Part shown: piece by piece, positions 26,699 to 28,415 of the stretch
Layout of the letters: each line of letters starts with the position of its first letter
Numbering within the stretch: the stretch's first letter is position 1
From: Escherichia phage warpig
DNA length: 64,000 nucleotides
Sequence record: MN850637.1
Reading direction: 5' to 3' (one strand)
The notes under the pieces: generated by a model
Told to the model about the DNA's origin: nothing
Database searches by the model: none
What the model saw: the letters and a program-made list of their open reading frames with translations, nothing else
Translations under genes and position numbers: made by a program

Positions 26699-27163
26699 TT
26701 ACTTTGGGTATACACTGTCAAGATAAATGTCAGCTTCCATTCTACGTCTGTTTTTCAGTCCGTTTGAAGTGACCTTCTGACCTTTGACTGTAACCTTGTT
26801 CCACCACTGCATAGCTTCTGCACAACCTACCTTATTACCAGCATTGTGTCGCTTGATAAATGTAGAATCCTGCATAGCTGTGATACCGATGTTGTATGTT
26901 TCACTTACAAGTGCATCGAACTCGTTCTGAGAAGTTGGAACCTTGATAGCTTTATTCACTGCTGCAACGAACTTCTCAACATCTGCAAGAAGATACCGTT
27001 CAGCTTGTTCAGCAGTAATTTTCATACCCATCTTAACAGGTTTTCCGTCAATACGGATTGTACCATACCCGATTGTTGGGATTCCGGCAGAGTCTTCGTA
27101 AGCCTCTAACTTCAGACCTTCAAAGAACTTAATAGCATCTAAACCTTTTCTTGAGAGTTGCAT
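26699..27163 (-). CDS. endolysin, GH24 (T4/lambda-type) lysozyme
   Basis: 154 aa; N-terminal catalytic region FEGLKLEAYEDSAGIPTIGYGT. Confidence 0.7.
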   Translation of the reverse strand: MQLSRKGLDAIKFFEGLKLEAYEDSAGIPTIGYGTIRIDGKPVKMGMKITAEQAERYLLADVEKFVAAVNKAIKVPTSQNEFDALVSETYNIGITAMQDSTFIKRHNAGNKVGCAEAMQWWNKVTVKGQKVTSNGLKNRRRMEADIYLDSVYPK

Positions 27164-28047
27164 TATGCCTCCCCTGCTGGGTTAACTGTAACTGTTGCCG
27201 CATTAGATGTTACAGAGCCACCTGCGCCAGTCACTACACAGGTGTAGCTTCCTGCATCAGCAGCGGTTGCACCTTCTTTGGTGTAAGTTGCAGCAGTTGC
27301 GTCTGGGATGACTTCCTCACCTTTCTTCCACTGGTAACCCGTTGCACCCGTTGCAGTCACTTCCAAGCTGATGTTTCCACCCTCATTGATGGTCTGGCTA
27401 GAAGGTTGTTGTGTAATCACAGGTAGTGCGTTCACAGTCACTGTTGCTGCATCTGAGGTAACACTTGTTCCACCCTCTCCAGATACAACACAAGTGTATG
27501 AACCAGCGTCAGAAGGTGCTACTGACTGTTTTGTGTAAGTTGCAGAATTGGCACTAGGGATGTCCTCACCATCCTTTTTCCATTGATATCCAGTGACATT
27601 AGTTGCAATAACGCTTAGGGTAAGTGTACCCCCTTCATTTACTGTTTGATTGGTTGGTTGCTGAGTGATTGATGGTGGCTTGATAGCATCCTTCAACTTA
27701 GCATTCAACATTGAGAACGGTTTAACTCTTGCCAGCCATTCACAATAAATTGTATCAACATCTTTACCATTGATAATTGCATATTGTAAGTCCATGAAGA
27801 AGTCAGAAGTTCTCATTTGAGCACCAATGTTGTAAAGCAACTCATCACTAAATGGAACTTTGTAGTCTGGTTTGTAGTCAAACTCCTCAACTTCTGCAAT
27901 ATCAGCTTCAGGCCAATACGAACTATAGGTAAGCGGTAAAATAGCCTCTTGATATGCTCTAAAATCATATCTCTTACCAGCTTTTACGTTTGCAATGAAG
28001 CCCTTCACAAACTCTTTGAAGTCTGGGTAAGTCTTTGCTTTAATCAT
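27163..28047 (-). CDS. protein with N-terminal unknown domain and two C-terminal Ig-like domains
   Basis: 294 aa; tandem repeat units ...TYTKQSVAPSDAGSYTCVVSG... / ...TYTKEGATAADAGSYTCVVTG...; N-domain paralogous to 28044..28415. Confidence 0.5.
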   Translation of the reverse strand: MIKAKTYPDFKEFVKGFIANVKAGKRYDFRAYQEAILPLTYSSYWPEADIAEVEEFDYKPDYKVPFSDELLYNIGAQMRTSDFFMDLQYAIINGKDVDTIYCEWLARVKPFSMLNAKLKDAIKPPSITQQPTNQTVNEGGTLTLSVIATNVTGYQWKKDGEDIPSANSATYTKQSVAPSDAGSYTCVVSGEGGTSVTSDAATVTVNALPVITQQPSSQTINEGGNISLEVTATGATGYQWKKGEEVIPDATAATYTKEGATAADAGSYTCVVTGAGGSVTSNAATVTVNPAGEA

Positions 28048-28415
28048 TTCTTTTTAGCCTCTAAATGTGCGTTTAGTCTAAAATAACCTTTGTGATGTGG
28101 AGATACATCACCAACAACAATACCTTTAACCTTATAACCCTTACCAATTACATACTGGATATCCATAAGGAATCTTCCAAGACCAACAATATGGAACATT
28201 GGATATAGTAGATTCTCAGAATCTGGAATATTGATTTCAGGTTTGTAGGTGCGTTGTTCGCTTGTTGGTGTAATATCTTCTTCAGGCCATTTGCTGAGTC
28301 TCCATGTCAAAGGTGTTGGGATAACATCATTAAGGTTGTACCTTTCACCATTTTGCACGGAATTGATATAGGATTGTAGGAAGCAATAAAAGTCTTTTGC
28401 ACTCTTAGCTTTCAT
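28044..28415 (-). CDS. paralogue of the N-terminal domain of the Ig-domain protein
   Basis: 123 aa; shared blocks (LxYxxG..F.MDIQY.I..GK). Confidence 0.45.
   Translation of the reverse strand: MKAKSAKDFYCFLQSYINSVQNGERYNLNDVIPTPLTWRLSKWPEEDITPTSEQRTYKPEINIPDSENLLYPMFHIVGLGRFLMDIQYVIGKGYKVKGIVVGDVSPHHKGYFRLNAHLEAKKK

Follow-up and report, generated by a model that had tools for sequence, protein, structure and literature searches.

In the 64,000-nucleotide stretch of Escherichia phage warpig analyzed here (sequence record MN850637.1; hereafter the window), three overlapping open reading frames (ORFs) on the minus strand encode a 123-residue protein (28044..28415), a 294-residue protein (27163..28047) and an endolysin (26699..27163). 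The window DNA is 95–96% identical to that of Felix O1 and its relatives (Felixounavirus, Ounavirinae), and the source phage is a Felix O1-like myovirus. The 294-residue protein corresponds to Felix O1 gp36 (gene 12, ORF36), Bas63 Hex-Dec and Sf14 gp20, and the 123-residue protein to Felix O1 ORF37 (NP_944851) and Sf14 FDI99_gp021. Full-length PHROG families exist for both, namely phrog_3995 ("tail protein") for the longer and phrog_4463 ("unknown") for the shorter. The third gene is indeed a lysozyme-type endolysin (Phage_lysozyme, GH24; Pfam E = 2e-40, with a PHROG match), equivalent to Felix O1 ORF35.

A sequence-only reading of the same DNA had placed the two ORFs at these positions and had described them as paralogues of which the longer carries two tandem immunoglobulin (Ig)-like modules. 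Both descriptions hold. BLASTP aligns the two proteins at 38% identity over 102 residues, and their Smith–Waterman score of 148 compares with 27.5 ± 4.9 for shuffled sequences (n = 2000; z = 24.7). In addition, each protein cross-matches the PHROG family of the other. In the longer copy, Pfam Ig_3 (3.4e-23), Ig_2 (5e-18) and I-set (3.7e-16) each match two stretches, and both modules carry the motif ATYTK...DAGSYTCVV(S/T)G. Repeats without a predicted Ig fold and a pair without significant similarity had been named beforehand as the observations that would count against this description; what is found is an Ig-fold model and a pairwise E value of 6e-16.

The 294-residue protein and the capsid

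Residues 1–290 of the 294-residue protein align with the PDB sequences of two capsid-bound chains, 9ncf_S of the Bas63 capsid (E = 1.6e-246) and 9c2d_S of the Sf14 capsid (E = 4.9e-182). The PDB match, the alignment and a structural model delimit, at the N terminus, a domain for capsid binding (CapBD; residues 1–122; 27682..28047, minus strand). In an AlphaFold2 model with a mean predicted local distance difference test score (pLDDT) of 85, which exceeds 95 in the beta domains, CapBD superimposes on 9ncf_S and on 9c2d_S with a template modelling (TM) score of 0.79 in each case. Arg79 and Arg107 are present in CapBD, and their partner residue, Asp221, is present in the major capsid protein (MCP) of the window, where it lies in the context KHPKIR-D221-AYL. 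The MCP gene (42558..43664, plus strand; 9ncf_A, E = 4.2e-246; 9c2d_A, E = 1e-232) is about 14.5 kb away from the gene of the 294-residue protein.

The orthologues have been characterized on the virion. The Bas63 protein, named Hex-Dec, consists of CapBD followed by one to four predicted Ig-like domains across the genus, and its gene, which is often wrongly annotated as encoding a tail protein, is located more than 10 kb away from the structural module (PMC12609058). Sf14 gp20 binds to the capsid by its first 118 residues, and Arg79 and Arg107 form salt bridges with Asp221 of MCP in three of the six subunits of a hexamer (PMC11821841). This protein is found only on the pentamer-proximal hexamers, the true three-fold hexamers being empty, and the authors ascribe such selectivity to a different geometry of Asp221 in the three-fold hexamers (PMC11821841). 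Sf14 gp20 has been both detected by mass spectrometry (MS) of virions and modelled in density (PMC11821841), and the CapBD density at the bound hexamers has been modelled as Hex-Dec at about 3 Å (PMC12609058, PMC11821841). Felix O1 gp36 has been identified by MS in CsCl-purified virions, with 14 peptides giving 44% coverage (PMC3185647).

The 294-residue protein shares with Bas63 Hex-Dec (9ncf_S) and Sf14 gp20 (chain S of 9c2d and 9c3a) an N-terminal CapBD, about 95% and about 85% identical, respectively, followed by I-set Ig domains. It also shares Arg79 and Arg107, Asp221 of MCP and the location of its gene, which lies upstream of the endolysin gene and not in the structural module. The sole difference is the Ig copy number, which is two here, four in Bas63 and three in Sf14. 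Given this near-identity, the mechanism by which the orthologues plug hexamers should be transferable to warpig. At each of the 60 pentamer-proximal hexamers of a T = 9 capsid, one Hex-Dec monomer would plug the centre with its N-terminal CapBD of about 120 residues and would project its Ig-like domains outward in the manner of T4 Hoc. Salt bridges that Arg79 and Arg107 form with Asp221 of three MCP subunits would contribute to holding it in place. We estimate at about 85% the probability of the explanation that best accounts for the locus as a whole, in which the 294-residue protein is Hex-Dec, a Hoc-like decoration of hexamer centres, and the 123-residue protein is an old tandem duplicate of CapBD alone. 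Essentially nothing counts against the assignment of the longer copy, whose location on the virion is known from orthologues only. The longer copy and its variable number of Ig domains have already been published in two cryo-electron microscopy (cryoEM) papers of 2025.

Hex-Dec works like T4 Hoc, a non-essential monomer that sits at hexamer centres and displays a string of Ig-like domains (PMC12609058, PMC11821841). However, it is not a Hoc homologue, since it has the opposite domain order and another anchor fold. The capsid-binding domain is C-terminal in Hoc and N-terminal in Hex-Dec, and that of Hex-Dec is larger, topologically distinct and pseudo-C2 symmetric (PMC12609058). The Hoc-like PHROG matches of the 294-residue protein are limited to its Ig region (residues 121–292), and, unlike Hoc, Hex-Dec fills no more than 60 of the 80 hexamers. 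The roles proposed for Hoc-type display are adhesion, aggregation and the sensing of the environment (PMC12609058, PMC11821841), and by analogy the Ig domains of Hex-Dec may mediate Hoc-like adhesion or aggregation, as proposed in the same two papers. Nothing links such an adhesion role to lysis.

The sequence-only reading had mentioned the decoration of virions, which is the right class as judged from 9ncf_S and 9c2d_S, and had then set it aside. It was correct that the pair lies directly upstream of the endolysin gene and is separate from the structural module, but the conclusion drawn from this position, that the pair is a non-structural accessory binding the cell wall or a surface and working with the endolysin, does not stand. 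The stop codon of the Hex-Dec gene overlaps the start codon of the endolysin gene as TAATG, and the order of the CapBD gene and then the endolysin gene is conserved across Ounavirinae, outside the structural module; both features would suit a lysis accessory. Ig-like domains can also bind carbohydrate in general. However, the orthologues have been solved on the capsid and found in purified virions, and the cryoEM models effectively refute a role in lysis. Neither a signal peptide, a signal-arrest-release (SAR) sequence nor a cell-wall-binding domain match in Pfam is found, and searches of Pfam and PHROG give no cell-wall-binding, holin, spanin or membrane domain match for either protein. Furthermore, reverse transcription PCR (RT-PCR) in Felix O1 has shown that the endolysin transcript (ORF35) peaks at 25 min, earlier than those of ORF36 and ORF37, which peak late, at 60 min, together with the morphogenesis genes (PMC3185647). 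A lysis accessory is thus very improbable, and the endolysin gene is a syntenic neighbour that is functionally not part of the decoration system, in a block bounded by hairpins.

Even less probable is a tail protein, the label carried by most GenBank records and by the name of phrog_3995. Felix O1 ORF36 was originally annotated as "HK97 major tail subunit" and is now "tail protein", and ORF37 is "hypothetical protein". The major-tail and Hoc-like PHROG matches are confined to the Ig region (residues ~121–292), and those to the "major tail protein" families phrog_158, phrog_853 and phrog_3575 cover only residues ~96–208, again the Ig region, with no tail-tube homology. The tail label thus arose by transfer through the promiscuous Ig domain. 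It is a misannotation according to the Bas63 paper (PMC12609058), and CapBD has been modelled in hexamer density. The assignment as Hex-Dec corrects this widespread annotation as well as the proposed link to lysis.

Ig modules on a common anchor

The two Ig-like domains of the I-set/Ig_3 type occupy residues 125–208 (27424..27675) and residues 209–290 (27178..27423) on the minus strand, as defined by Pfam, AlphaFold2 and structure matches. The two all-beta domains of the model match tandem Ig structures such as those of Robo, titin, MuSK and Sidekick with a probability of 1.0. Residues 125–208 and 209–294 are 63% identical in protein and 60.5% identical in DNA. A recent tandem DNA duplication of the modules was considered and rejected; since Tandem Repeats Finder detects no 250-bp array and DNA identity is only 60.5%, the duplication of the Ig module is old.

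The length of Hex-Dec varies from phage to phage, being 377 residues in ECML-1, 210 in JH2, 372 in Sf14 and 294 here. The same CapBD anchor carries one to four I-set domains, one Big_2-type Ig domain in Erwinia phage M7, or other beta-rich modules, and in one protein of 153 residues (P0103) it bears only a low-complexity tail rich in Lys and Ser. Such module-swapped CapBD genes are represented by that of M7 (L005 2941-3561), that of the metagenomic relative L011 (5001-5462) and those of proteins P0099–P0104. In both genomic contexts examined, M7 and L011, the CapBD gene is directly upstream of the endolysin gene. A profile search of 1.84 billion representatives yields 13 CapBD clusters at 50% identity. 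Nine of them are of the Ounavirinae type, either with a checked origin or as close homologues of checked members, and the other four are P0100, P0101, P0102 and P0104.

Promiscuous Ig modules on a virion-anchoring domain are also found in other phage Ig display systems, such as T5 pb10 and the Ig-tagged major tail proteins of lambda and HK97. The concept of phage Ig-like domain display reportedly goes back to Fraser et al. in 2006. Unlike in those systems, the anchor here belongs to a tiny, Ounavirinae-specific family. To our knowledge, an anchor-only paralogue beside the full-length gene has not been described for the T5 pb10, lambda or HK97-type Ig systems.

A CapBD-only product is also encoded in Shigella phage Z31 (L014 898-1470), in which a premature stop after residue 133 cuts Hex-Dec into a CapBD and a separate Ig fragment. 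Either the split reflects an Ig-less Hex-Dec that occurs naturally, or it stems from an error in sequencing.

The Ig-less paralogue

The conserved anchor-only paralogue is the only element of the locus not already described in the literature searched. Neither the paralogue nor a duplication is mentioned in the Bas63 and Sf14 structure papers (PMC12609058, PMC11821841), nor in the papers on Felix O1, VpaE1 and UAB_Phi87. The 123-residue protein matches the CapBD part only of the solved chains (residues 3–117 of 9ncf_S, E = 1.2e-11), terminates five residues past the CapBD boundary (LNAHLEAKKK, then stop) and shows neither an Ig-like nor any other Pfam domain. In its AlphaFold2 model (pLDDT 77.5; predicted TM score 0.77), helices and strands follow one another in the order found in CapBD of Hex-Dec. 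When the whole PDB is searched by Foldseek, this model matches only 9ncf_S and 9c2d_S (probability 1.0, TM score 0.65–0.67), and the next match has an E value above 1. In comparison with Hex-Dec, the paralogue thus consists of CapBD only, at about 35% identity, and lacks the Ig domains as well as both contact arginines.

The paralogue is under constraint. The Nei–Gojobori ratio of nonsynonymous to synonymous substitution rates (dN/dS) is 0.09–0.18 for Felixounavirus and Mooglevirus pairs, compared with 0.04–0.07 for CapBD of Hex-Dec, except for one close pair (dS 0.07, dN/dS 0.33), and about 0.10 for the endolysin. A joint CapBD alignment including 14 paralogues reveals about 30 positions that are invariant in both groups, including the motifs WPE-DI, LLY, F-MD-Q and LNA-L. 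Another 44 positions are fixed within each group and yet differ between Hex-Dec and the paralogue. In all 14 aligned paralogues, an invariant Gly78 stands at the position of Arg79, and either His or Gln stands at that of Arg107, with His108 next to it and likewise invariant. The C-terminal lobe of the paralogue is almost invariant across genera. A functionless pseudogene is contradicted by the dN/dS values and by this lobe, and the paralogue is a real, constrained gene that arose as a tandem duplicate of CapBD alone. The fixed differences together with the near-invariant lobe speak for an interface that is specific and has changed, and against decay. A conserved charge switch between the two copies was also considered and rejected: the isoelectric point is 9.1 for the paralogue of the window versus 5.0 for CapBD of its Hex-Dec, but the paralogues of Mooglevirus are acidic, and basic CapBDs occur in some Hex-Dec proteins.

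The gene layout ties the paralogue closely to Hex-Dec. A Shine-Dalgarno sequence, AAGGA (28422..28426, minus strand), lies 6 nt upstream of the paralogue ATG at 28415 and is the same in relatives. The stop codon of the paralogue and the start codon of Hex-Dec overlap as ATGA (28044..28047, minus strand), as read directly from the sequence, and a GAGG Shine-Dalgarno sequence lies about 10 nt upstream of the Hex-Dec start within the 3' end of the paralogue gene; both features are conserved. The overlap and the internal GAGG suggest that the paralogue and Hex-Dec are probably translationally coupled. Upstream, a hairpin of the form GGGGC-TGAT-GCCCC followed by a T-rich run (28440..28453, minus strand) lies between the homologue of ORF38 and the paralogue, and it is listed as a rho-independent terminator in the Felix O1 terminator table (PMC3185647). 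This hairpin is kept in all pair-bearing lineages examined, namely Felix O1, JH2, Sf14, Moogle and the metagenomic L009, and is missing from M7 and L011, single-copy lineages in which ORF38 and the CapBD gene are directly adjacent. It may terminate or attenuate transcription or make the mRNA more stable. A strong intrinsic terminator, AGGCTCC-TTCG-GGAGCCT followed by a T-run (26672..26689, minus strand), ends the three-gene block after the endolysin gene. No sigma-70 promoter is found between the upstream hairpin and the paralogue ATG, and promoter-like sites in the region do not exceed shuffle expectation. The differing transcript peaks of the Felix O1 genes despite their overlaps may stem from an internal promoter, from mRNAs of unequal stability or from the limitations of RT-PCR.

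The ORF junction also raises the idea of a programmed –1 frameshift at AAA-AAG that would join both ORFs into a double-CapBD fusion. Hex-Dec does lie in the –1 frame, and the junction reads GCT-AAA-AAG-AAA-TGA (28048..28062, minus strand). However, the AAAAAG run is not conserved, the corresponding sequence being GCT-AAG-AAA-TGA in Mooglevirus and GTA-AAA-ATA-TAA in L009, the heptamer has T rather than A at its X position, and the reported mass of Felix O1 gp36 is 31.6 kDa (PMC3185647). Such a fusion is almost certainly not made and was rejected; the slippery run is probably incidental.

The paralogue is intact in 232 of the 252 matching phage records. The trio of paralogue, Hex-Dec and lysozyme genes is also present in Mooglevirus and in a divergent 87-kb metagenomic scaffold, whose paralogue copy is about 48% identical to the Mooglevirus copies. 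Three lineages retain the paralogue, which one clade has lost in a single event. In the single-copy lineages, Erwinia phage M7 and the metagenomic L011, the same synteny contains a single CapBD gene, which is Hex-Dec-like; these genes are detected by a Hex-Dec query but not by a paralogue query. Because the single-copy lineages resemble the Hex-Dec copy, the short copy is the derived, faster-evolving duplicate.

The loss is found in the SP116-like clade, about 19 records in which the best paralogue match is below 60%. In its members REP12, Z31, vB_CECAV_041 and SP116, the paralogue carries an internal deletion of about 220 nt and has lost its start codon (REP12, L004 2306-2497; Z31, L014 706-897; vB_CECAV_041, L015 713-897; SP116, L016 709-900). 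The four paralogue-less genomes examined have identical deletion breakpoints, which indicates a single ancestral loss; repeated independent losses were rejected on the same evidence. Since phages of this clade still form plaques, the paralogue is dispensable for plaque formation. Isolation hosts in the clade include E. coli, Salmonella and Shigella.

Salmonella phage SP3_SHan-2021 (MW296865, L003 2501-3379) has a single chimeric gene for a protein of 292 residues with two Ig domains. Residues 1–47 are derived from the paralogue and the remainder from Hex-Dec, with the crossover at the WPE-DI motif that both share. From its sequence, the chimera looks as if one gene had been deleted when the two paralogues recombined unequally. 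However, it is a singleton, its 99%-identical relatives retain both genes, and it may be an assembly artefact.

Possible partners of the paralogue

Our tentative proposal is that the paralogue still targets the centres of MCP hexamers, in a state or class different from that used by Hex-Dec, by binding that is transient in assembly or labile. It would bind to hexamers of the procapsid or of an assembly stage or, alternatively, would bind weakly or labilely to the 20 true three-fold hexamers left empty by Hex-Dec. In either case, the paralogue would act during head maturation and not as a stable decoration. A sharper form of this proposal, in which the paralogue is a second hexamer-centre ligand dedicated to the 20 true three-fold hexamers or to unexpanded procapsid hexamers that Hex-Dec cannot use, is doubtful. 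If it were true, the two hexamer classes of a T = 9 shell would be served by two paralogous plugs, a permanent one bearing Ig domains and a bare one that is transient or labile, which would account for the occupancy of 60 of 80 hexamers as well as for the escape of the paralogue from virion proteomics.

Several observations weigh against such a role of the paralogue. It is neither among the 17 structural proteins of Felix O1 (PMC3185647) nor in the structural table of Sf14 (PMC11821841), and, judging from what the main text of the VpaE1 paper says, it does not appear to be among the 22 VpaE1 virion proteins. Neither cryoEM study reports density on the true three-fold hexamers (PMC12609058, PMC11821841). 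The clade of about 19 phages that lost the paralogue by a single deletion is still plaque-forming. Finally, with both arginines gone, it is equally conceivable that the paralogue no longer binds to the capsid at all.

In the main rival explanation, the fold would have been reused for an unrelated intracellular partner of host or phage origin, and the paralogue would no longer belong to capsid biology. The 44 fixed-but-different positions, the lost contact arginines and the absence from virions are in favour of such a partner, and the almost invariant C-terminal lobe implies a specific new interface. However, the late expression with the morphogenesis genes, the tight coupling to Hex-Dec and the conserved adjacency of the two genes speak against it, and the paralogue matches no other family. 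We regard a non-capsid partner as possible but not probable.

There are two further explanations. The paralogue may be a second stable decoration protein on the 20 true three-fold hexamers, in keeping with a retained CapBD fold whose contact residues have specifically changed, with its late co-expression with and coupling to Hex-Dec, and with the selectivity that the Sf14 authors attribute to the Asp221 geometry of these hexamers. However, no density there is reported from two independent reconstructions, and the protein is missing from the virion MS lists. Alternatively, the paralogue may be an Ig-less competitor that caps some of the hexamer centres or binds to Hex-Dec itself, thereby tuning the number of displayed Ig fibres. 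The same fold, co-translation from one mRNA and the roughly 30 invariant shared positions would agree with this idea, but the paralogue lacks both arginines that are used at the Hex-Dec site, the hexamer CapBD density has been modelled as Hex-Dec at about 3 Å, and the paralogue is undetected in virions. Because of the negative cryoEM and MS evidence, a stable second decoration is unlikely and a competitor slightly more so.

The paralogue offers a natural way into the question of how a decoration protein that is monomeric tells quasi-equivalent hexamers apart in a T = 9 shell. It is also a minimal capsid anchor for which natural chimeric and deletion variants exist, and it could find use in phage display with Felix O1-like phages for therapy and biocontrol.

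Two observations concern the surroundings of the locus. A gene at 30126..31541 on the plus strand, divergent from the decoration and lysis block, encodes a 471-residue protein that is annotated as "RNA-binding protein" in Felix O1 and whose L011 homologue matches DUF2828 and DUF7788; in Felix O1, the tRNA gene cluster comes next. The Felix O1-like region of the locus is also present, at 96% identity, in GU169904.1, "Staphylococcus phage SA1" (141143-144643), which is probably a contaminated or chimeric assembly.

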